Shown here one piece after another: positions 37,727-51,890 of a stretch of DNA of 64,000 nt; within the stretch, counting starts at the first letter, position 1, and each line of letters opens with the position of its first letter. The notes below the pieces were generated by a model. The model did no database searches. It had not been told where the DNA came from and worked only from the letters and a program-made list of their open reading frames with translations. The position numbers and the translations under genes were made by a program. Origin of the DNA: Escherichia coli (GTDB lineage: Bacteria > Pseudomonadota > Gammaproteobacteria > Enterobacterales > Enterobacteriaceae); NCBI RefSeq assembly GCF_044324875.1, contig NZ_CP172185.1; one strand, 5' to 3'.

Positions 37727-38082
37727 AAGATATGTTCCGTTATACGCAGCCCACAACGCGTCCTGCCCGTGGATGCGCTGACGTGTTATGGCTTGCGTAT
37801 GGGGTTGATGGAATAAGTGAAAAACCGCGGCAGAACGGGAAGATCAGGTAACCGACAAGGGACAGAACACCGGATGCAGGTTCAGAATGAATGATCTCCG
37901 TTGACTTCGGTTCACATCATTAAGCAGGACAGTAAGGTTTTACCGACGGAGTGTTTCCAGGAGCGAAAGCAGAGAAAAATACCGTTGCATGACTTCAGGA
38001 CGACTTTTTCAGAAAACGAGCTAAGGGCGTCAGCCAACGTCCTGTAGCATAAGCTCAGGCACCGGATGTCGTTTTACAGGGC

Positions 38083-38814
38083 TCACCTGCCATCCAGCAG
38101 ACGCCCCGGCCCACGACTGCAACCATAATTACGTTGCCCGGAACCGTCATGCTGCTTCGTCTCATATTTCACGAGATAACTGGCTCTGTTCCGGGCTTTC
38201 TGCAGCGCTTCCACATCACCACGCTTGATCCAGAGAACAGCGGCTTCACCCGGCTTTTTTTCTGAAGCCTTCCTGGTATCAGAACATCCACCCGACAAAG
38301 GCGTGTCATCGGAAGAAGGGCGAGCATCAGACGATGCTGGTTTACGGGAAGGCGTCCACCTGGAAAAATGGACCAGGCCATCGCCTTGCCAGGCCTCAAG
38401 ATGCAGGGCGCTGCACCATGCCTCCAGGATCATCGTCGCCAGCGAAGATGGTTCGCTGAAATCCCCTGGCGAGCACCAGGTATCTTTGTTGAGCAGCAAT
38501 ATCACGTGATAATGTTTCCTGCCTTTTTCCTTGCCAAACTCCCGACACCAGAAATAACGCAGAGTGGTTGCACGCACACGCTTGTTGGCACGTCGTTTTT
38601 TCCGCTGGTAAGCCTGGATTTTGGCTTTCAGGGATTCGAAAAAACGAGAAATCACCGCTGAATCCGGATCGGGATCCATGATGGTGACAGGCATATACTC
38701 AGGGAAACGTAAATCCACCCGGATTAACGAGACGGCACGGTGCTGCGACAGGGCACTGTCGAGAAGGCTGTCAAAACGGGATAACCAGTAAGCATTGTGT
38801 ATTGGTTGATTCAT
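38083..38814 (-). CDS. Gp2/YagK/YfjJ-family island protein
   Basis: 243 aa, MNQPIHNAYWLSRFDSLLDS... with a GRKHYHVILLLNKD motif. Confidence 0.55.
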   Translation of the reverse strand: MNQPIHNAYWLSRFDSLLDSALSQHRAVSLIRVDLRFPEYMPVTIMDPDPDSAVISRFFESLKAKIQAYQRKKRRANKRVRATTLRYFWCREFGKEKGRKHYHVILLLNKDTWCSPGDFSEPSSLATMILEAWCSALHLEAWQGDGLVHFSRWTPSRKPASSDARPSSDDTPLSGGCSDTRKASEKKPGEAAVLWIKRGDVEALQKARNRASYLVKYETKQHDGSGQRNYGCSRGPGRLLDGR

Positions 38815-40397
38815 GATGAGAGATCTCCGTTGATTTGGATTGACTTCACATCATTAATCACCGCGGTAAAACTTTACGGCATCATGTCATTAAGCAATGC
38901 TACAACTCTCTGATTAAGAGTGATTGAAACGGAACAAACCATCCCGGAACGAAAAGATAATCCTGCACACAGCAGCAAAACACGCAACAACAGCATGAAT
39001 GGATTTAAAAACGACATGGACGACGAGAAAAGCCTGAAGGGAAAAGGATCCACAGAACATTCGAACAAAACACCAGAAACGCAACCAGAACGCTTCCTGG
39101 CAATGCAAATCAACAACAACGCCAAAACCTACAGCTTAATCACACAACTCAATCACGAATGCGAATGACACGTTTAAAACCTGTTTACAGATAACGCCGT
39201 AACACGATCATCCCCATCACCATCAGAATCGATTTTCTCATCCCGAAAATGTTACGTTTCACTACGCACCATAAAAACGATTAACCATCGATAACGTAAA
39301 TCTCATCTGAATCAAAAAACCAAAACCAATCATCACACTTTCGCAATGCAAGAAGAAAAACCACATCATGACGAAAACAATGACCTTACATGAAAAAGCA
39401 AAACGTCAGGAATCGTTAATGCCTCAATCTGATTGTTATCAAAACATCCAGAAAGTCGTTTAACAGAATCGTCGTAAGCACATCGAAAAGAACGTCAGAT
39501 CACCTCAGGAAAGTTCGGGTTGATTTAGCGTAAAGATACTTTTCTCAGCTTAACGTCGAAACACAAACCAAAAACCACAAACAACCAAAGCTCAGGAAAG
39601 GTTAAACGTCACATCAGTAAAATCGAATAGCAGATTGATTGCTTAAACAGGAAAGATTGTTTTACAGCAGCATTAAACTGATTTAGTTAACGTAAAATCA
39701 GAACTGACAGGTTTACTAACTTGGATGTGTATCAGTTCAAAAATGTGTACAGCAATGCGTAATGAAACACATTTAAAGGAGATTAATGGGAAAAGTGTGT
39801 AAATGCGTAAACATGCACTAATGAATCACTGAAGGAATACATACAAAACGACTTAATGAAAACATAAAAGGACCTAATGGAAAAGGTGTATATAATACCA
39901 TATCCGACATTCTCAACATCTTAAGACATCCATGCAGACTGAATGTTGGTTTCAGTTTTTCACGGTAAGCATGAATCTTTTCTGTTCAAAAGCAGAGCAG
40001 ATTTACTCTGGAATTATTTTTCTTACTCCGTATTCTGTACAGCAAAAACTTGTGCTAACTTTACAGCAAACCATCATAATCAGCGTCTGTAGTCCCATCG
40101 CTTTACCCCATGAAAGTGAATCCATATGATGTGAGAGAGATAAGTCATCGTATCCGGTAAACACTGCTTACTATAACATAAGATCATTCAGTCAGTTTTA
40201 TCTCTGAACTGACGATTATGGCATGCTCATTTATATGGCTCACAGAGGAGTGTTATTATCCGTAAGCTTTAATCATCAAATCACATGACCATACCAAACT
40301 GGCGCTATATCAGCTCATTTGACGCTCATTCCCTTTAGATTTCTTTATGTGTTTTTTGTCGATAATTAAAATGTAATATAAATTTAATATTTTCACA

Positions 40398-41621
40398 TCA
40401 TAAACACCATTTAAAACCATCATCCTGAACATCATACAACAATATATTTTTACTAAAGCATGAATTGTATATTTCTATTAATTCAGGAAAATTATCAGGA
40501 TTCACCTTTAAATTCAACTGAATGTTACACTTAATTTCACTCAGCAGTTCTTCATGCGTGGATTTTATTATCCCTTTATCATAATCTATAAATACACACA
40601 TGTTTTTCATGAATTCAAACCCTTTTCCTGTATACAGTTTGATGAATGCCACAAGAGCAAACATTTCAAGATGCAGCCATAATGCCACGTGAGTTTTTCG
40701 CAAAGTATAAAAAATTGAATTCGCCACTTTTTTACTTATTGCTCTTTTGTACTGTGAGTGCGCCAGATTCAGTAGTGGCAATTCTCTCTCGATAAATGAA
40801 AGTGAAAAAGGCGGGTAAATTGATGTCGGAAATATTTCAGGTCTTATGATATTTTCGATTTCCACCATAAATCTATCCATAGAACGAAAATCATTTTCTT
40901 TTTTTATTCTGGTATAGAGACCGCCTTTATTCCTTACTGCGACTTTTTTTCGTGCTATCCCCCCCAACATTTCCTCTAATTGTTTATTTATCTTCGTATC
41001 ATTAAATACAACCATTCTTCTTATCATCCTGGGAAGGATGATAATATCAGAGCTTGAATCACTTGAACGGCAATTATTATTGATCCATGCAACTTCAAGT
41101 TGAAGTATCGGAACATTAAATTCTCTGGGGTTAATAACTCTCTGATATTGTTTTTTGTATGCGTTTTCATTAAGATATTCTCTGCTGTAGAGAAACTTAT
41201 AGCAATATAATCTGACAATATCCTTTATGTAAGATTTAAATGAGTCACCTGTAACAGATATATTTTTTCTTCTCAGTAACTCCTGTGTATTGAGCCATTC
41301 CCGTGACCGGAGTACTCCATTATGAAGACTTTTTCTTACTTGCTTTGAATTGCGCAATTGATGTAATATTTTTGCGTCCTCAACAATTCTCTTTCCCGTT
41401 TGATTTCTTGCAGCATCTATTACTCTGTCAAATATCTCCCGGTCCAGACTTTTGTCATATTTACTGATTATACGACAAATATTCCTGACCCGACGGTTCT
41501 CTTTATTTCGTTTCCATAACTGATAATGATCATCACATAACCTCAGGGCATTTGCCTCATCAAATTCTGAAACAGGATTGCTGCATTTTTTATTCCGACA
41601 GATACCTTTGTTTTTAGCCAT
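40398..41621 (-). CDS. Uncharacterised AT-rich orphan protein (407 aa) with an N-terminal Cys/His cluster
   Basis: Clean ATG at 41621 with a purine-rich ribosome-binding site; single long ORF; AT content visibly much higher than neighbours; CRNKKCSNPV...LCDDHYQLW near the N-terminus; no Walker A, DDE or HNH motif seen. Confidence 0.6.
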   Translation of the reverse strand: MAKNKGICRNKKCSNPVSEFDEANALRLCDDHYQLWKRNKENRRVRNICRIISKYDKSLDREIFDRVIDAARNQTGKRIVEDAKILHQLRNSKQVRKSLHNGVLRSREWLNTQELLRRKNISVTGDSFKSYIKDIVRLYCYKFLYSREYLNENAYKKQYQRVINPREFNVPILQLEVAWINNNCRSSDSSSDIIILPRMIRRMVVFNDTKINKQLEEMLGGIARKKVAVRNKGGLYTRIKKENDFRSMDRFMVEIENIIRPEIFPTSIYPPFSLSFIERELPLLNLAHSQYKRAISKKVANSIFYTLRKTHVALWLHLEMFALVAFIKLYTGKGFEFMKNMCVFIDYDKGIIKSTHEELLSEIKCNIQLNLKVNPDNFPELIEIYNSCFSKNILLYDVQDDGFKWCL

Positions 41622-41721
41622 ACTCTTCTTCCCGTCAATGGAAAAATTTTCACGTCCATATTACCTGACTGAGAGGCCGGATTAATGTGATCCGGTTCAG
41701 TGAAATCAACAGGATAACGGT

Positions 41722-42606
41722 ATGTCATTCAGCCATTCTTCCCTCTCCGCACACGTAAAGTCACATCTGACCTTTCTTCCTGAAGAAATTCGCCAGAAAA
41801 TCCTTGAACATCTTCGCAGCGTCATTCAGTACGAACCCGTTATTGGCATTATGGGTAAATCCGGTGCCGGAAAAAGCAGCCTGTGCAATGCCATTTTTCA
41901 GTCCCGTGTCTGCGCCACGCATCCGCTGAACGGCTGCACCCGTCAGGCTCATCGTCTTACCTTTCAGCCCGGTGAACGAAGAATGACGCTGGTCGATCTG
42001 CCCGGCACTGGCGAAACACCACAGCATGATCAGGAATACCGGGCACTTTACAGTCAGTTACTGCCCGAACTGGATCTGATTATCTGGATCCTGCGGGCTG
42101 ATGAACGTGCGTATGCTGCCGACATCGCCATGCATCAGTTTTTACTGAATGAAGGTGCCGATCCCTCGCGTTTTCTGTTTGTTCTCAGCCATGCCGATCG
42201 CATCCACCCGGCTGAAGAATGGAACAACCAGAGCAGCACGCCATCCCGTCAGCAGGAACTCTCACTGGCGACGGTGACAGCCCGGGTGGCAACCCTGTTC
42301 CCTTCATCATTTCCGGTACTCCCCATAGCCGCTCCTGCCGGCTGGAATCTTCCGGCATTTGTGTCTCTGATGATCCACGCCCTGCCACCACAGGCAACCA
42401 GCGCGGTTTATTCGCATATCCGGAATGAAAAGCGCACTGCGCAGGATCAGCAACACGCACAGCAGGCTTTTGGTGACGCCATCGGCCAGAGTTTTGACGC
42501 TGCCATTGCCCGGTTCAGCTTTCCGGCCTGGATGCTGCAGCTTCTGCGCAAAGCCCGTGATCGCATTATCCGCCTGCTGATCACACTGTGGGATCGCCTG
42601 TTCTGA
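41722..42606 (+). CDS. YeeP/YkfA/YfjP-family GTPase (island-associated)
   Basis: 294 aa; P-loop GIMGKSGAGKSS and DLPGTGE G3 motif. Confidence 0.85.
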   Translation: MSFSHSSLSAHVKSHLTFLPEEIRQKILEHLRSVIQYEPVIGIMGKSGAGKSSLCNAIFQSRVCATHPLNGCTRQAHRLTFQPGERRMTLVDLPGTGETPQHDQEYRALYSQLLPELDLIIWILRADERAYAADIAMHQFLLNEGADPSRFLFVLSHADRIHPAEEWNNQSSTPSRQQELSLATVTARVATLFPSSFPVLPIAAPAGWNLPAFVSLMIHALPPQATSAVYSHIRNEKRTAQDQQHAQQAFGDAIGQSFDAAIARFSFPAWMLQLLRKARDRIIRLLITLWDRLF

Positions 42607-42791
42607 ATGTCCCCGCTTTTTGACCGGCCCCGGCGATAACCAGGAAACGCATTTCCGGTTGCGTCACCACAATGCTGAAGGGCTTCGGTAAACCCTCATT
42701 CATTTCATCCATCAGGCCGCGTCTTCTCCGTGAGACGCGGCTTTTTCATTGATTACGTCATTCAGTCTTAACCACTGATAAGGAGCAAAGT

Positions 42792-43610
42792 ATGCGATTA
42801 GCCAGTCGTTTTGGTTATGCGAACCAGATACGCCGTGACCGTCCGCTGACCCGTGAAGAGCTGATGCACCATGTGCCCGGGATTTTCGGGGAAGATAAAC
42901 ACACCTCCCGGAGCCGGAACTATACATACATCCCCACCATCACCGTGCTGGAAAGCCTGCAGCGGGAAGGCTTTCAGCCATTCTTCGCCTGCCAGACCCG
43001 CGTACGTGACCCGGGTCGCCGGGGGTATACCAAACACATGCTGCGTCTGCGCCGTGACGGGGAGATAAACGGACAACATGTCCCTGAAATTATTCTGCTC
43101 AACTCTCATGACGGTACCTCCAGCTACCAGATGCTGCCGGGTTACTTCAGGTTCGTCTGCCAGAACGGATGCGTCTGCGGTCAGTCTCGGGGGGAAGTGC
43201 GTGTTCCGCACCGGGGAAATGTGGTGGACAGAGTCATTGAAGGGGCTTACGAGGTGGTGGGCGTGTTTGACCGGATAGAGGAGAAGCGTGATGCCATGCA
43301 GTCGCTGGTCCTGCCGCCACCGGCACGCCAGGCGCTGGCACAGGCGGCACTGACTTACCGTTATGGTGACGAACATCAGCCCGTCACCACCGCCGACATT
43401 CTGACACCACGACGCCGGGAGGATTACGGTAAGGACCTGTGGAGTGCTTATCAGACCATCCAGGAGAATATGCTGAAAGGCGGGATTTCCGGTCGCAGTG
43501 CAAAAGGAAAACGTATCCATACCCGGGCCATTCACAGCATTGATACCGATATAAAACTCAACCGCGCATTGTGGGTGATGGCAGAAACGCTGCTGGAGAG
43601 CATGCGCTGA
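42792..43610 (+). CDS. DUF932-family protein (YfjQ/YafZ-like)
   Basis: 272 aa; AGGAGC Shine-Dalgarno; sits at the position this family holds in CP4-type elements. Confidence 0.75.
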   Translation: MRLASRFGYANQIRRDRPLTREELMHHVPGIFGEDKHTSRSRNYTYIPTITVLESLQREGFQPFFACQTRVRDPGRRGYTKHMLRLRRDGEINGQHVPEIILLNSHDGTSSYQMLPGYFRFVCQNGCVCGQSRGEVRVPHRGNVVDRVIEGAYEVVGVFDRIEEKRDAMQSLVLPPPARQALAQAALTYRYGDEHQPVTTADILTPRRREDYGKDLWSAYQTIQENMLKGGISGRSAKGKRIHTRAIHSIDTDIKLNRALWVMAETLLESMR

Positions 43611-43691
43611 TGCCGTTTCCCTGAGTGAGGGAATCATTCAGCTTTCGTTCCTGAAAAACACACATTTATTTGTTATTTAAGGCGTTATCTC

Positions 43692-44171
43692 ATGAAAACC
43701 GTTTCTCAGAATACCCCCACAATTTATTCAGCTACAACACCAGAGAATAATCCGCCTCAGTTGGTTGCCAGCCTCGTCCCTGATGAACAGCGCATCAGCT
43801 TCTGGCCGCAGCATTTTGGCCTCATTCCACAGTGGGTGACCCTGGAGCCCCGTGTCTTCGGCTGGATGGACCGTCTGTGCGAAGACTACTGCGGTGGTAT
43901 CTGGAATCTGTACACCCTGAACAACGGCGGGGCATTTATGGCCCCCGAACCGGATGATGATGATGACGAAACATGGGTACTGTTCAATGCCATGAACGGT
44001 AACCGCGCTGAAATGAGCCCGGAAGCCGCCGGCATTGCCGCCTGTCTGATGACGTACAGTCATCACGCCTGCCGTACGGAGTGTTATGCCATGACGGTTC
44101 ATTATTACCGTCTGCGGGATTACGCCCTGCAGCATCCGGAATGCAGCGCCATTATGCGCATCATTGACTGA
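43692..44171 (+). CDS. Antirestriction protein, ArdB/KlcA family (YfjX/YkfF-like)
   Basis: 159 aa, ...FWPQHFGLIPQWVTLEPRVFGWMDRLCEDYCGGIWNLYTLNNGGAFMAP... Confidence 0.75.
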   Translation: MKTVSQNTPTIYSATTPENNPPQLVASLVPDEQRISFWPQHFGLIPQWVTLEPRVFGWMDRLCEDYCGGIWNLYTLNNGGAFMAPEPDDDDDETWVLFNAMNGNRAEMSPEAAGIAACLMTYSHHACRTECYAMTVHYYRLRDYALQHPECSAIMRIID

Positions 44172-44186
44172 AAGGGGGCCGGAACA

Positions 44187-44663
44187 ATGCAACAGATTTC
44201 CTTTCTGCCCGGAGAAATGACAACCAGAGAGCGCAGCCTCATTCAGCGGGCCCTGAAAGCCCTGGACCGCCATCTTCATGAACCCGGCGTGGCCTTCACC
44301 TCCACGCATGCGGCACGGGAATGGCTGATTCTGAACATGGCGGGACTGGAGCGTGAAGAATTCCGGGTGCTGTATCTGAATAACCAGAATCAGCTGATTG
44401 CCGGTGAAACCCTCTTCACCGGCACCATCAACCGCACGGAAGTCCATCCCCGGGAAGTGATTAAACGCGCCCTGTACCACAATGCCGCTGCCGTGGTGCT
44501 GGCGCACAATCACCCGTCCGGTGAAGTCACACCCAGCAAGGCAGACCGCCTTATCACGGAACGTCTGGTACAGGCGCTGGCCCTGGTGGATATCCGGGTG
44601 CCGGACCATCTGATAGTCGGTGGCAGCCAGGTTTTCTCCTTTGCCGAACATGGTCTGCTTTAA
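44187..44663 (+). CDS. RadC-like JAB-domain protein (YeeS/YfjY/YkfG family)
   Basis: 158 aa; JAMM motif HNHPSGEVTPSKAD. Confidence 0.85.
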   Translation: MQQISFLPGEMTTRERSLIQRALKALDRHLHEPGVAFTSTHAAREWLILNMAGLEREEFRVLYLNNQNQLIAGETLFTGTINRTEVHPREVIKRALYHNAAAVVLAHNHPSGEVTPSKADRLITERLVQALALVDIRVPDHLIVGGSQVFSFAEHGLL

Positions 44664-44725
44664 CCCGTCACAACCACATCACACCTGTTTTCACTTTTAT
44701 CTTCTGTCTTCAGAGGTATCCCATT

Positions 44726-44947
44726 ATGAAAATCATCACCCGTGGTGAAGCCATGCGTATTCACCAACAGCATCCTGCATCCCGTCTTTTTCCGTTCTGT
44801 ACCGGCAAATACCGCTGGCACGGCAGCACTGAAACGTATACCGGTCGTGAAGTGCAGGATATTCCCGGTGTGCTGGCTGTGTTTGCAGAACGTCGTAAGG
44901 ACAGTTTTGGCCCGTATGTCCGGCTGATGAGCGTCACCCTGAACTGA
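44726..44947 (+). CDS. DUF987-family small protein (YeeT-like)
   Basis: 73-aa ORF in the position YeeT holds between the RadC-like gene and the cbeA/cbtA pair. Confidence 0.65.
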   Translation: MKIITRGEAMRIHQQHPASRLFPFCTGKYRWHGSTETYTGREVQDIPGVLAVFAERRKDSFGPYVRLMSVTLN

Positions 44948-44961
44948 GTCAGGGCATTCTG

Positions 44962-45594
44962 ATGAGCAGAATTATCACCATCACAGTGTATACGCTGGAT
45001 GAACTTTCCTGCCCGGCACGGGAAAAAGCCCGCGACGGGTACCGTCAGCATCATGCTGACAGCAACTGGTATGAAAACGTGTATGAGGACGTCAGGGAGG
45101 TCTGTGGCATTTTCGGAATTGACCTCTGCCAGCGTGTTATCCGTCTCAGCAACGGCAGGTTTATGGAAGAGCCGTGCATCTGGTTCAGCGGATTCTGCAG
45201 CCAGGGACGGAGCCTGTTTTGAAGGACGCTGGCACTGGCAGTCAGCAACAACCAGGAGAGTCCGGGAGTATGCCCCGCAGAACCGTGAGCTTCATCGTAT
45301 CGCGGATGCCCTGCAGGCGGTGCAGAAACGTAACTTCTGGCAACTGCAGGCTGAAATCCACCACCGGGGACGTTACTGCCATCCGTTATCACTGTTACCC
45401 GGAACAGTCCGACTGGTCAGGCTATGACAGCCGATGCGGAAGCCGCTGTCAGCGAAGCCCTGCGCGACCTGGCCTTCTGGCTGTACCGTCAACTGGAAAA
45501 CGAGTACGACCAGATGACCTCAGACGCCGCTGTGGATGAGGCCATTCTCATCAATGCATACATCTTCACCGAAACCGGTCAGCGCACCGGCTGA
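44962..45594 (+). pseudogene. Unknown-function island gene split by two frameshifts
   Basis: 44962-45222 and 45424-45594 share a frame; the middle part (to 45427) is in the +1 frame. Confidence 0.4.
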
Positions 45595-45643
45595 CCTGTC
45601 ATCGTTAAACCATTCTTAACCACTTTTCAGAGAGGATTTTATC

Positions 45644-46012
45644 GTGTCAGACACACTCTCCGGGATAACTCATCCCGACGACAATCACGACCGCCCCTGG
45701 TGGGGGCTTCCCTGCACAGTGAGGCCCTGTTTTGGCGCCCGTCTGGTGCAGGAGGGTAACCGCCTGCATTACCTTGCCGACCGCGCCGGCATCAGAGGCC
45801 GGTTCAGCGATGCGGATGCATACCATCTGGACCAGGCCTTTCCGCTGCTGATGAAACAACTGGAACTCATGCTCACCAGCGGTGAACTGAATCCCCGCCA
45901 TCAGCATACCGTGACACTGTATGCGAAGGGGCTGACCTGCGAAGCCGACACCCTCGGCAGTTGTGGTTACGTTTATCTGGCTGTTTATCCGACGCCCGAA
46001 ACGAAAAAGTAA
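45644..46012 (+). CDS. cbeA: CbeA/YeeU-family antitoxin (type IV toxin-antitoxin)
   Basis: 122 aa, MSDTLSGITHPDDNHDRPWWGLPCTVRPCFGARLVQEGNRLHYLADRAGIRG... Confidence 0.85.
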   Translation: MSDTLSGITHPDDNHDRPWWGLPCTVRPCFGARLVQEGNRLHYLADRAGIRGRFSDADAYHLDQAFPLLMKQLELMLTSGELNPRHQHTVTLYAKGLTCEADTLGSCGYVYLAVYPTPETKK

Positions 46013-46102
46013 ACCACCGGAATAACCTTCTGCTCCGGCCAGGTGTTTTCACCACGCCACTCTCCCCATAATTTAATCTCTCATATCAGGAAAATCTTCA
46101 GT

Positions 46103-46513
46103 ATGAAATTATTACCCGACACACATGTACGGGAGGCATCGTGCTGCCCGTCTCCCGTCACCATCTGGCAGACACTGCTCATCCGTCTGCTGGACCAGCA
46201 CTATGGCCTCACACTGAATGACACACCGTTCGCTGATGAACGTGTGATTGAGCAGCATATTGAGGCCGGCATTTCACTGTGCGATGCGGTGAACTTTCTC
46301 GTTGAAAAATACGCACTGGTACGTACCGACCAGCCGGGATTCAGCGCAGGAGCCCCGTCGCAGTTAATCAACAGCATCGATATTCTCCGGGCCCGCCGGG
46401 CAACAGGCCTGATGACACGTAATAACTACAGAATGGTAAATAACATTACCCTGGGTAGCATCCGGGGGCGAAACGATGAAACTTTCCCTGACGCTGGAAG
46501 CCGACAGCATTAA
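46103..46513 (+). CDS. cbtA: CbtA/YeeV-family toxin
   Basis: From ATG 46103: [56 protein letters not shown]...; track ORF starts upstream at 46043. Confidence 0.85.
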
Positions 46514-46898
46514 CGTGCAGGCACTGAACATGGGGCGCATTGTCGTTGACATTGATGGTGTAAATCTCGCTGAACTGATTAACAAGGTCGCTGAATACGG
46601 TTATTCACTCCGCGTGGTGGATGAACGTGACGCTACCGAAACACCGGCGACTTCTGCCAGCTCTCATCAGTTGCCGGAAGACAATACAGTGATACAGAGC
46701 GTGATGCCATTAACCACTGAAACAGCGCTGGATATCCTCATTGCGTGGCTGCAGGACAATATCGACTGCGGGTCCGGAATTATTTTCGACAACGATGAGG
46801 ATAAAACGGATTCGGCAGCACTGCTGCCCTGTATTGAACAGGCCAGGGAGGATATCCGTACCCTGCACCAACTGCAACTTCTGCACCAGAACCGGTGA
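46476..46898 (+). CDS. YeeW-like protein
   Basis: 140-aa ORF overlapping the cbtA 3' end, in the position of yeeW homologues. Confidence 0.55.
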
Positions 46899-46982
46899 AT
46901 CTCACTCACCAGACTTCATTCTCCTGACGCCAGCCTGAACAGAGCTGGCGTTTTCGTTTATAAACAGAAAGGAAACCCCATA

Positions 46983-47768
46983 ATGTCATATATCACAATC
47001 CCCCACCCGAACGCGGTCAACGGACATACAGCCGTTATCTGTTCCACAAGTATCAGACACATCCTGGCTGTACGAAAGAGTACACTGCTGCAAATCGACA
47101 CGCTTATCCGGCAACTGACAGAAATCTCAGCACTGACGGAAAGTATTGGCGGTAAAGCCGCCCCGGACTGGGCCATGAAACAGGATTTTCGCTGTGGCTG
47201 CTGGCTGAAGGAGAAACAGGAAACCGCAATGAAAGCCATTACCCGGAATCTTGACCGCGAAATCTGGCGTAACCTGATGCAGCGTTCCGGGATGCTTTCC
47301 TTAATGGATGCACAGGCACGTGATACATGGTACAGGTCACTGGAATATGATAATTTTCCGGAAATCAGTGAAGCGAACATTCTGAGCACATTTGAACAAC
47401 TGCACCAGAATAAGGATGAAGTGTTTGAGCGGGGGGTGATCAACCTCTTCAAAGGGCTGAGCTGGGATTACAAAACCAACTCACCCTGTAAATTTGGCAG
47501 TAAAATTATCGTCAACAATCTGGTGAGGTGGGACCAGTGGGGATTTCATCTTATCAGTGGAATGCAGGCAGATCGCCTGGCTGACCTGGAAAGAATGTTG
47601 CATCTGCTCAGCGGTAAACCGATCCCCGACAACCGGGGAATATCACCATTAATCTGGATGACCACATACAGTCCGTTCAGGGTAAAGGACGCTATGAAGA
47701 TGAGATGTTCATCATTAAATACTTTAAGAAGGGAGCTGCACACATCACTTTCAAAAGGCTGGAGCTGA
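46983..47768 (+). CDS. DUF4942-family protein
   Basis: 261 aa, MSYITIPHPNAVNGHTAVICSTSIRHILAVRKSTLL...; last gene before the island boundary. Confidence 0.65.
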   Translation: MSYITIPHPNAVNGHTAVICSTSIRHILAVRKSTLLQIDTLIRQLTEISALTESIGGKAAPDWAMKQDFRCGCWLKEKQETAMKAITRNLDREIWRNLMQRSGMLSLMDAQARDTWYRSLEYDNFPEISEANILSTFEQLHQNKDEVFERGVINLFKGLSWDYKTNSPCKFGSKIIVNNLVRWDQWGFHLISGMQADRLADLERMLHLLSGKPIPDNRGISPLIWMTTYSPFRVKDAMKMRCSSLNTLRRELHTSLSKGWS

Positions 47769-47935
47769 TTGACAGAATTAACGATATAATAGCCAGGCAC
47801 TTTCCTTCTGTGCTCTCAGCCTGACCCCGAGTTTGATTCCCTTTCGATATCAAAAGGGACTGCGGGTACAAAAGAGGGTACATCTTTCACCAAACCAAAC
47901 AAAATAAACCAATATCAACACGATAGAAGCATTCT

Positions 47936-47956
47936 TCGATTCCGAGTCCGGCACCA
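47936..47956 (+). repeat. 21-bp copy of a tRNA-Phe 3' end: island att direct repeat (distal boundary)
   Basis: TCGATTCCGAGTCCGGCACCA matches the pheU/pheV acceptor/T-arm end TTCGATTCCGAGTCCGGGCACCA with one G missing; no upstream tRNA body. Confidence 0.6.
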
Positions 47957-47965
47957 AATTCATAT

Positions 47966-47996
47966 AAACGGACCTCCACGGAGGTCCGTTTTTCGT
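47966..47996 (+). terminator. Rho-independent terminator hairpin after the tRNA-Phe fragment
   Basis: aaacggacctcc-acg-gaggtccgttttt. Confidence 0.55.
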
Positions 47997-48572
47997 TTCA
48001 GGACGCCACAATTTAAGCGTTCTGCCTAAAAATCATTTCTACCGAACTCAACCAGATTCTCCCCACATCACCAGCAATTTGCGGGCATATCCCAATTCGG
48101 GGAAATGTGTTCCTGAGCTATAGCACTGACTGACGTGAAATGTCGTGCGGCCCCGTGATGCTGTTGAACGTCAAATGACGTCATCAGGAGCGTAACGCAT
48201 CCATAAAGCACAACATCGGGCAGAACGCCGACTGATGAGATTTTCTGAATGAGAACAAAGAGAAATGTATCAGTCCGCTTGCTCATGCAAAGACTAACAA
48301 TCCATAAAAATAGTAAGCGCTCCGGGCAATTTTCCATGGATTATTTTCTGAACATTTTTCTTTGGCAAAGATGATGAATTTTGATGGTAAGGAATATTAC
48401 TTCTGGTTCTCAGTAAAATCCTTTCGTAATACTATGTGATCAAGAAGTTTATGGCTGGTAAAAATAACGTCTTGCATTCACCAATAATATGTAAATAAAC
48501 CCATCTATAGATGGTAAAAATAGGTTGTGGCAATTATCATTGCATCATTCCCTTTTCGAATGAGTTTCTATT

Positions 48573-50111
48573 ATGCAACAACCTGTAGTTCGCGTTGGCG
48601 AATGGCTTGTTACTCCGTCCATAAACCAAATTAGCCGCAATGGGCGTCAACTTACCCTTGAGCCGAGATTAATCGATCTTCTGGTTTTCTTTGCTCAACA
48701 CAGTGGCGAAGTACTTAGCAGGGATGAACTTATCGATAATGTCTGGAAGAGAAGTATTGTCACCAATCACGTTGTGACGCAGAGTATCTCAGAACTACGT
48801 AAGTCATTAAAAGATAATGATGAAGATAGTCCTGTCTATATCGCTACTGTACCAAAGCGCGGCTATAAATTAATGGTGCCGGTTATCTGGTACAGCGAAG
48901 AAGAGGGAGAGGAAATAATGCTATCTTCGCCTCCCCCTATACCAGAGGCGGTTCCTGACACAGATTCTCCCTCCCACAGTCTTAACATTCAAAACACCGC
49001 AACACCACCTGAACAATCCCCTGTTAAAAGCAAACGATTCACTACCTTTTGGGTATGGTTTTTTTTCCTGTTGTCGTTAGGTATCTGTGTAGCACTGGTA
49101 GCGTTTTCAAGTCTTGATACACGTCTTCCGATGAGCAAATCGCGTATTTTGCTCAATCCACGCGATATTGACATTAATATGGTAAATAAAAGTTGTAACA
49201 GCTGGAGTTCCCCGTATCAGCTCTCTTACGCGATAGGCGTGGGTGATTTGGTGGCGACATCACTTAACACCTTCTCCACCTTTATGGTGCATGACAAAAT
49301 CAACTACAACATTGATGAACCGAGCAGTTCCGGTAAAACATTATCTATTGCGTTTGTTAATCAGCGCCAATACCGTGCTCAACAATGCTTTATGTCGGTA
49401 AAATTGGTAGACAATGCAGATGGTTCAACCATGCTGGATAAACGTTATGTCATCACTAACGGTAATCAGCTGGCGATTCAAAATGATTTACTCCAGAGTT
49501 TATCAAAAGCGTTAAACCAACCGTGGCCACAACGAATGCAGGAGATGCTCCAGCAAATTTTGCCTCATCGTGGTGCGTTATTAACTAATTTTTATCAGGC
49601 TCATGATTATTTACTGCATGGCGATGATAAATCATTGAACCGTGCCAGTGAATTACTAGGTGAGATTGTTCAATCATCCCCCGAATTTACCTACGCGAGA
49701 GCAGAAAAAGCATTAGTTGATATCGTGCGCCATTCTCAACATCCTTTGGATGAAAAACAATTAGCAGCACTGAACACAGAAATAAATAACATTGTTACAC
49801 TACCGGAATTGAATAACCTGTCCATTATATATCAAATAAAAGCGGTCAGTGCTCTGGTAAAAGGTAAAACAGATGAGTCTTACCAGGCGATAAATACTGG
49901 CATTGATCTTGAAATGTCCTGGCTAAATTATGTGTTGCTTGGCAAGGTTTATGAAATGAAGGGGATGAACCGGGAAGCAGCTGATGCATATCTCACCGCC
50001 TTTAATTTACGCCCAGGGGCAAACACCCTTTACTGGATTGAAAATGGTATATTCCAGACTTCTGTTCCTTATGTTGTACCTTATCTCGACAAATTTCTCG
50101 CTTCAGAATAA
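48573..50111 (+). CDS. cadC: Membrane-integrated transcriptional activator CadC
   Basis: 512 aa, MQQPVVRVGEWLVTPSINQISRNGRQLTLEPRLIDLLVFF...; winged-helix N-terminus, single transmembrane segment. Confidence 0.95.
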   Translation: MQQPVVRVGEWLVTPSINQISRNGRQLTLEPRLIDLLVFFAQHSGEVLSRDELIDNVWKRSIVTNHVVTQSISELRKSLKDNDEDSPVYIATVPKRGYKLMVPVIWYSEEEGEEIMLSSPPPIPEAVPDTDSPSHSLNIQNTATPPEQSPVKSKRFTTFWVWFFFLLSLGICVALVAFSSLDTRLPMSKSRILLNPRDIDINMVNKSCNSWSSPYQLSYAIGVGDLVATSLNTFSTFMVHDKINYNIDEPSSSGKTLSIAFVNQRQYRAQQCFMSVKLVDNADGSTMLDKRYVITNGNQLAIQNDLLQSLSKALNQPWPQRMQEMLQQILPHRGALLTNFYQAHDYLLHGDDKSLNRASELLGEIVQSSPEFTYARAEKALVDIVRHSQHPLDEKQLAALNTEINNIVTLPELNNLSIIYQIKAVSALVKGKTDESYQAINTGIDLEMSWLNYVLLGKVYEMKGMNREAADAYLTAFNLRPGANTLYWIENGIFQTSVPYVVPYLDKFLASE

Positions 50112-50476
50112 GTAACTCCCGGGTTGATTTATGCTCGGGAATATTTGTTGTTGAGTTTTTGTATGTTCCTGTTGGTATAATATGTTGCGGCAATTTATTT
50201 GCCGCATAATTTTTATCACATAAATTTAACCAGGAAATATCCCGCAATCCATTGTAAACATTGAATGTTTATCTTTTCATGATATCAACTTGCGATCCTG
50301 ATGTGTTAATAAAAAACCTCAAGTTCTCACTTACAGAAACTTTTGTGTTATTTCACCTAATCTTTAGGATTAATCCTTTTTTCGTGAGTATTCTTAGCGC
50401 CAGTTTGGTCTGGTCAGGAAATAGTTATACATCATGACCCGGACTCCAAATTCAAAAATGAAATTAGGAGAAGAGC
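50112..50476 (+). promoter_or_regulatory. cadBA promoter region (Pcad) containing the CadC binding sites
   Basis: Intergenic region between cadC and cadB; assigned from established knowledge of the cad locus, individual sites not mapped. Confidence 0.5.
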
Positions 50477-51811
50477 ATGAGTTCTGCCAAGAAGATCGGG
50501 CTATTTGCCTGTACCGGTGTTGTTGCCGGTAATATGATGGGGAGCGGTATTGCATTATTACCTGCGAACCTAGCAAGTATCGGTGGTATTGCTATCTGGG
50601 GTTGGATTATCTCTATTATTGGTGCAATGTCGCTGGCGTATGTATATGCCCGACTGGCAACAAAAAACCCGCAACAAGGTGGCCCAATTGCTTATGCCGG
50701 AGAAATTTCCCCTGCATTTGGTTTTCAGACAGGTGTTCTTTATTACCATGCTAACTGGATTGGTAACCTGGCGATTGGTATTACCGCTGTATCTTATCTT
50801 TCCACCTTCTTCCCAGTATTAAATGATCCTGTTCCGGCGGGTATCGCCTGTATTGCTATCGTCTGGGTATTTACCTTTGTAAATATGCTCGGCGGTACCT
50901 GGGTAAGCCGTTTAACCACTATTGGTCTGGTGCTGGTTCTTATTCCTGTGGTAATGACTGCTATTGTTGGCTGGCATTGGTTTGATGCTGCGACTTATGC
51001 TGCTAACTGGAATACTGCGGATACCACCGATGGTCATGCGATCATTAAAAGTATTCTGCTCTGCCTGTGGGCCTTCGTGGGTGTTGAATCCGCAGCTGTA
51101 AGTACTGGTATGGTTAAAAACCCGAAACGTACCGTTCCGCTGGCAACCATGCTGGGTACTGGTTTAGCAGGTATTGTTTATATCGCTGCGACTCAGGTGC
51201 TTTCCGGTATGTATCCGTCTTCTGTAATGGCAGCTTCCGGTGCTCCGTTTGCAATCAGTGCTTCAACTATCCTCGGTAATTGGGCTGCGCCGCTGGTTTC
51301 TGCATTCACCGCCTTTGCGTGCCTGACCTCTCTGGGCTCCTGGATGATGTTGGTAGGCCAGGCAGGTGTACGTGCCGCTAACGACGGTAACTTCCCGAAA
51401 GTTTATGGTGAAGTCGACAGCAACGGTATTCCGAAAAAAGGTCTGCTGCTGGCTGCAGTGAAAATGACTGCCCTGATGATCCTCATCACTCTGATGAACT
51501 CTGCCGGTGGTAAAGCATCTGACCTGTTCGGTGAACTGACCGGTATCGCAGTACTGCTGACTATGCTGCCGTACTTCTACTCTTGCGTTGACCTGATTCG
51601 TTTTGAAGGCGTTAACATCCGCAACTTTGTCAGCCTGATCTGCTCTGTACTGGGTTGCGTGTTCTGCTTCATCGCGCTGATGGGCGCAAGCTCCTTCGAG
51701 CTGGCAGGTACCTTCATCGTCAGCCTGATTATCCTGATGTTCTACGCTCGCAAAATGCACGAGCGCCAGAGCCACTCAATGGATAACCACACAGCGTCTA
51801 ACGCACATTAA
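50477..51811 (+). CDS. cadB: Lysine/cadaverine antiporter
   Basis: 444-aa APC-family transporter, MSSAKKIGLFACTGVVAGNMMGSGIALLP... Confidence 0.95.
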   Translation: MSSAKKIGLFACTGVVAGNMMGSGIALLPANLASIGGIAIWGWIISIIGAMSLAYVYARLATKNPQQGGPIAYAGEISPAFGFQTGVLYYHANWIGNLAIGITAVSYLSTFFPVLNDPVPAGIACIAIVWVFTFVNMLGGTWVSRLTTIGLVLVLIPVVMTAIVGWHWFDAATYAANWNTADTTDGHAIIKSILLCLWAFVGVESAAVSTGMVKNPKRTVPLATMLGTGLAGIVYIAATQVLSGMYPSSVMAASGAPFAISASTILGNWAAPLVSAFTAFACLTSLGSWMMLVGQAGVRAANDGNFPKVYGEVDSNGIPKKGLLLAAVKMTALMILITLMNSAGGKASDLFGELTGIAVLLTMLPYFYSCVDLIRFEGVNIRNFVSLICSVLGCVFCFIALMGASSFELAGTFIVSLIILMFYARKMHERQSHSMDNHTASNAH

Positions 51812-51890
51812 TTAAAAGTATTTTCCGAGGCTCCTCCTTTCATTTTGTCCCATGTGTTGGGAGGGGCCTTTTTTACCTGGAGATATGACT

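Follow-up and report, generated by a model that had tools for sequence, protein, structure and literature searches.

A frameshifted pseudogene of the DUF8835 family in a degrading CP4-type island beside cadC of Escherichia coli

In the stretch of Escherichia coli DNA that we analysed (64,000 nt in length, hereafter the window), positions 44962-45594 are very likely, with a probability that we put at about 0.93, a pseudogene that arose through ordinary mutational decay in a degrading CP4-type island next to cadC. The region should be annotated as one frameshifted pseudogene and neither as three hypothetical ORFs, nor as a recoding candidate, nor as an assembly fault. In itself the locus matters little, being an ordinary dead gene whose broken copy has been passed down in dozens of sequenced strains.

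Layout of the gene and its two deletions

The list of ORFs in the 43500-47500 part of the window contains an 86-aa ORF in frame 1 (44962..45222), a 142-aa ORF in the +1 frame (44999..45427) and a 56-aa ORF back in frame 1 (45424..45594). Three-frame translation agrees with the list for these three pieces, and the frames and coordinates of the three segments that had been given in a preliminary description made from the sequence therefore hold. The pieces line up, in the same order, with the N-terminal part, the middle and the C-terminal part of a single family of 214-aa proteins, which means that their arrangement is not a product of chance. The earlier proposal of a single split gene is thus borne out; the quoted ends of the ORFs, on the other hand, are not the sites of breakage, because the lesions lie at 45204-45206 and at 45386/45387. 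The features of the gene are as follows.

44962..45594, + strand: the whole pseudogene (633 nt), assigned by alignment and by PGAP to the DUF8835 / 'antitoxin of toxin-antitoxin stability system' family
44962..45203, + strand: segment 1, native codons 1-81 in frame 1 (MSRIIT...FSGFCSQ)
45204..45206, + strand: lesion 1, a 2-bp deletion in which GG is lost after 45203 and a run of five G becomes GGG
45217..45222, + strand: TTT TGA, with the first premature frame-1 stop; the product is 86 aa
45207..45386, + strand: segment 2, native codons ~83-142 (DGACFEGRWHWQ...HRGRYCHP), in the +1 frame only
45386..45387, + strand: lesion 2, the junction of a 10-bp deletion, ACAGCATGGA being lost after 45386
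45387..45594, + strand: segment 3, the native C-terminal codons (ITVTRNSPTGQAMTADAEA...TGQRTG, then the stop) in frame 1; the ATG at 45424, inside this segment, is the start of the 56-aa ORF

Alignment to intact homologues, which the preliminary description had called for, gave exactly two gaps between the window gene and the intact alleles of Nissle 1917 (WP_000094916.1) and MRSN346647. The intact alleles are single ORFs of 645 nt encoding 214 aa, as compared with 633 nt in the window copy. The Nissle 1917 allele stands in the same gene order and shares 587 of the 633 aligned bases with the window; it differs in that the window has lost the GG after 45203 and the 10 bp after 45386 and has no continuous ORF. 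Once both deletions are restored, a clean ORF of 214 codons is obtained. According to family alignments, lesion 1 falls inside the near-invariant motif SQGDGACFEG (Q81-G-D-G-A-C-F-E-G89), and lesion 2 takes out Y143-S-M-D of the conserved HRGRYxHxYSM, in which Y143 and M145 adjoin H141. No microhomology flanking the 10-bp deletion was seen when the alignment was read directly, and a repeat search found no repeats flanking either deletion.

Translation from 44962 yields 81 native residues followed by 5 aberrant ones and ends at the TGA at 45220. Between the two lesions, frame 1 contains four stops (45220, 45286, 45331 and 45352). The last segment is back in frame 1 because the losses of 2 and 10 nt amount to 12 nt, and it is in this arithmetical sense that the two frameshifts can be called compensating, as they had been. 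In the sense of a rescue the word does not apply: with four frame-1 stops between the lesions, the second deletion rescues nothing and restores no continuous frame. It is a coincidence, with a prior chance of ~1 in 3, that the two losses together are divisible by three.

The homologues make it clear what the gene looked like before it was broken. It had been considered that they might be naturally encoded as three separate small ORFs; they are single ORFs of ~214 aa instead. The restored translation is similar over its full length to the ~214-aa DUF8835 family, matching 214-aa E. coli proteins with an E value of about 1e-129 and 100% coverage. It has 2,666 relatives, mostly of exactly 214 aa, in E. 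coli, Salmonella, Klebsiella and Citrobacter and, at ~60% identity, in the Alphaproteobacteria Methylosinus, Tistrella and Stappia. An exhaustive HMMER search returned 3,373 clusters (50% identity), almost all of them ~200-225 aa long and matching in a single stretch over residues 1-214, and PHROG 5162 (unknown function) is matched over the full length as well (residues 2-213, E 8e-36). The best-conserved motif of the family, according to two alignments, one of 23 members and one of 84, is WFSGFxSQGDGACFEG. An AlphaFold2 model built from the 84-sequence alignment predicts that the restored protein is one compact domain (pLDDT 95.1, pTM 0.86) with beta strands in segment 1 as well as in segment 2. 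The place of the gene in CP4-type islands, between the DUF987 gene and the cbeA/cbtA pair, is conserved too.

The pseudogene is in fact already known, as RefSeq flags an identical locus as 'frameshifted'. In strain AR_0085, PGAP annotates AM464_RS30715 (NZ_CP029741.1 2785065-2785697) as a single CDS and a pseudogene with the note 'frameshifted' and the product 'antitoxin of toxin-antitoxin stability system'; newer PGAP annotations name the family DUF8835 domain-containing protein. The AR_0085 locus is 100% identical to the window over a 751-nt query that includes the whole 633-nt gene, and it has the same flanks (the DUF987 gene upstream and the gene of a YeeU-family antitoxin downstream) in the same island beside cadC. 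Inside the gene the two do not differ at all, and over the wider island they share 98.3% identity, with a number of indels.

Sister alleles, island context and origin of the lesions

A megablast search with 44900-45650 covered 5,426 complete E. coli genomes and found matches in 4,777. At least 19 of these, independent of one another and originating from different laboratories, hosts and countries, carry the 751-nt stretch with 100% identity. Both lesions were found in 34 of the 5,426 genomes when a 291-nt query spanning them was used at >=99% identity, whereas the uninterrupted 303-nt version is present in ~1,920 complete E. coli genomes. The exact 70-nt deletion junction occurs in 39 genomes; this count comes from a strict search, a looser one having returned 115 records at >=99% identity that included half-length matches. 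Among public assemblies, the exact 86-aa fragment is encoded on 544 contigs and the exact 56-aa fragment on 478.

Sister alleles carry the lesions separately or carry other ones. The alleles of GPEC1040 and Ch1 have the 10-bp deletion only (635 nt), and that of ACN002 combines it with a separate 5-bp deletion inside segment 1 (630 nt). The TUM9803 allele has the 2-bp deletion only (643 nt). The EC0585 allele has neither deletion and is interrupted by a TAT-to-TAA nonsense mutation at codon 41. The 10-bp deletion is common to alleles with several different 5' haplotypes, and it is for this reason probably the older of the two, or else it was spread by recombination.

The history that best fits these alleles starts from an ancestor with a single 645-nt ORF encoding the compact 214-aa protein. 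The 10-bp deletion at 45386/45387 probably came first, and the 2-bp loss in the run of five G (45204-45206) would have followed on one of the haplotypes that carried it. We infer this order from the distribution of the lesions, and it requires recombination or gene conversion to account for TUM9803, with its 2-bp lesion only.

The restored protein deviates at none of 26 deeply conserved positions. Of 86 positions at which close relatives are conserved, it deviates at 5, where the median is 2; as a test for relaxed constraint, this comparison gave a weak result. That the sequence is so well preserved outside the lesions suggests that inactivation was recent, or that decay is slow.

The pseudogene is part of a co-directional module that comprises, in order, DUF932, antirestriction, RadC/JAB and DUF987 genes, the pseudogene, cbeA, cbtA, and DUF5983, DUF957 and DUF4942 genes. 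The module lies within a CP4-type island abutting cadC: the island ends shortly past the DUF4942 gene, core genes begin at ~47826 next to cadC, and positions 47826-64000 align with cadC and with the core genes that follow. In the AR_0085 annotation of the same island, the integrase gene at the island end is reduced to a fragment. A promoter and terminator scan found no internal promoter-like site in the region; its terminator-like matches were few, with none on the + strand within the gene. The neighbours that bear on the state of the module are the following.

44726..44947, + strand: DUF987 (yeeT-like) gene, the upstream neighbour, intact, 73 aa
45644..46012, + strand: cbeA (YeeU-family antitoxin), the downstream neighbour, intact, 122 aa
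46103..46513, + strand: cbtA toxin gene; by comparison with the intact allele of EC0585, 1 bp is deleted near 46457
46983..47768, + strand: DUF4942 gene, encoding 261 aa as compared with ~280 because 1 bp is deleted near 47638

The statement of the preliminary description that the neighbouring genes are intact is correct for the DUF987 gene, cbeA and the genes upstream, and has to be amended for cbtA, DUF5983 and DUF4942 downstream. The deletion in cbtA replaces the last ~6 residues and makes the ORF 12 codons longer. In AR_0085, PGAP calls cbtA 'frameshifted' too; the gene of the cognate antitoxin, cbeA (45644-46012), is intact. At 46476-46898, the DUF5983 gene is a short remnant, in which ~280 nt are missing relative to Nissle 1917 and which is continuous with DUF957 (yeeW-like) sequence in one 140-aa ORF. 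The lesions in cbtA, DUF5983 and DUF4942 mean that the whole module is decaying, and the analysis thus shows the decay of the copy of the cbeA/cbtA module that the island carries in the window.

Taken by itself, the gene has what is expected of a pseudogene: a frame disrupted by premature stops, lesions that are inherited, and independent further lesions in sister alleles and in neighbours. We infer that the window allele would give no functional product.

Elsewhere in the window, a 302-nt stretch on the - strand (8522-8823) has 87% identity to the DUF4942 region of the island module of Nissle 1917, which suggests a possible second island remnant.

Alternative readings

The preliminary description had left three options: a pseudogene, an assembly error or programmed frameshifting. 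The inheritance of the lesions speaks for the first and removes the second, and the existence of intact single-ORF homologues removes the third. In two further readings, selection acted on the broken allele.

The first of these accepts that the gene is dead and differs from ordinary decay as to why. It is possible, though unlikely, that loss of activity was selected for after the island had become fixed, so that the double-lesion allele would be adaptive in a largely poultry-associated lineage of E. coli; as a minor variant of this reading, +1 slippage at UUU UGA might provide traces of a partly native product. It is the repeated and independent hits to the gene that bring this scenario to mind, namely deletions of 10, 2 and 5 bp and a nonsense codon in close relatives and, in other strains, loss of the stop codon and in-frame fusions to cbeA.

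The second holds that the gene has been split and still works, the 86-aa fragment and perhaps the 56-aa ORF being made and functional and the allele being kept by selection. In its favour, the allele has a fairly wide distribution, is well preserved apart from the lesions, and retains at its 5' end both the start codon and the operon context. The 86-aa N-terminal fragment may have some residual activity. Nevertheless, we consider a functional split gene very improbable. The protein is modelled as one compact domain, and SQGDGACFEG and the predicted strands at 84-92 lie at the break or just past it; no homologue is naturally encoded in pieces; sister alleles have accumulated more lesions of a random kind (the nonsense codon 41 of EC0585 and the 5-bp deletion of ACN002); and no obvious ribosome-binding site was seen by eye ahead of the ATG at 45424.

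Programmed recoding would have to join the three segments by means of a +1 shift near 45217-45222 and a return (-1 or +2) near 45387, the outcome being a nearly full-length protein. There is some resemblance to a known system. The prfB frameshift site consists of the slippery stop CUUUGA with a Shine-Dalgarno element 3 nt upstream (PMC10798248), and the window gene likewise has its first frame-1 stop directly after a T-run, in TTT TGA (45217-45222), with the purine-rich GGAG (45209-45212) 4 nt upstream. This likeness is a loose one, since the window has UUUUGA in place of CUUUGA, the Shine-Dalgarno-like element is weak and its spacer is 4 nt rather than 3. In addition, no homologue preserves the site as a frameshift, and a second, opposite shift that has no signal of its own would be required: the return zone (45355-45427) lacks an X XXY YYZ heptamer and offers no more than a GGGG run. 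In the intact frame, the bases TTTTGA simply belong to the conserved codons TGT TTT GAA, which specify C-F-E. The arrangement itself is not conserved, given that the ORF is uninterrupted in ~1,920 E. coli genomes and in thousands of homologues and that sister alleles have one lesion or other lesions. A doubly shifted product would moreover lack the near-invariant D83, G84 and A85 (>=90% conserved in the 84-sequence alignment) as well as Y143 and M145 (>=90% among 23 closer homologues). An Rfam scan of 38000-50000 found no element. Low-level accidental +1 slippage at TTT TGA is conceivable; recoding as a programmed event, for which we found neither conservation among homologues nor a slippery sequence at each shift, has hardly any probability left.

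Equally little remains of the idea that the genome has an intact 645-nt gene in which two indels were miscalled during sequencing or assembly, for although lesion 1 affects a short homopolymer of G, a context in which some platforms miscount, it removes two bases from a run of only five, lesion 2 removes 10 bp of complex non-homopolymer sequence, each lesion is found alone in other genomes, and the allele recurs in the 19 or more identical genomes, the 34 doubly deleted ones and the 544 and 478 contigs enumerated above.

The intact family

As compared with the pseudogene, which we regard as the outcome of ordinary decay, the intact family is worthier of study: it is widespread and strongly conserved, it occurs in integrative elements and in phages, and it has a confident AlphaFold model. 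The restored protein had no match in Pfam or NCBIfam, and no consistent family emerged when 84 family members were scanned against Pfam, the local copies of these databases evidently being older than the DUF8835 model. No sequence relative in the PDB and no fold relative were found; the matches in BFVD are to uncharacterised phage proteins only. A literature search on the legacy name, on DUF8835 and on the gene set of the island found nothing relevant.

The position of the family gene varies between hosts. In E. coli it stands ahead of cbeA, and in Klebsiella michiganensis between cbeA and cbtA, whereas in Tistrella mobilis it is located in an ICE-like region with genes for ParB, DUF736, a relaxase and a coupling protein and has no CbeA or CbtA for company. 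Because of this variable position and of the Tistrella copy, the legacy name of 'antitoxin' looks unfounded for the DUF8835 family; a search for experiments behind the name found none. Judging from the neighbours only (antirestriction, RadC, DUF932 and ParB), it is plausible that the family plays a role in the establishment of mobile elements in a new host.

Variants of the protein were also encountered in other E. coli strains. In some of them, the 214-aa protein is fused in frame to CbeA, giving 342-343 aa (e.g., VEE48_07310 of strain 39EVA); others encode a 227-aa stop-loss form, or a 283-aa form in which the first ~69 residues are duplicated.
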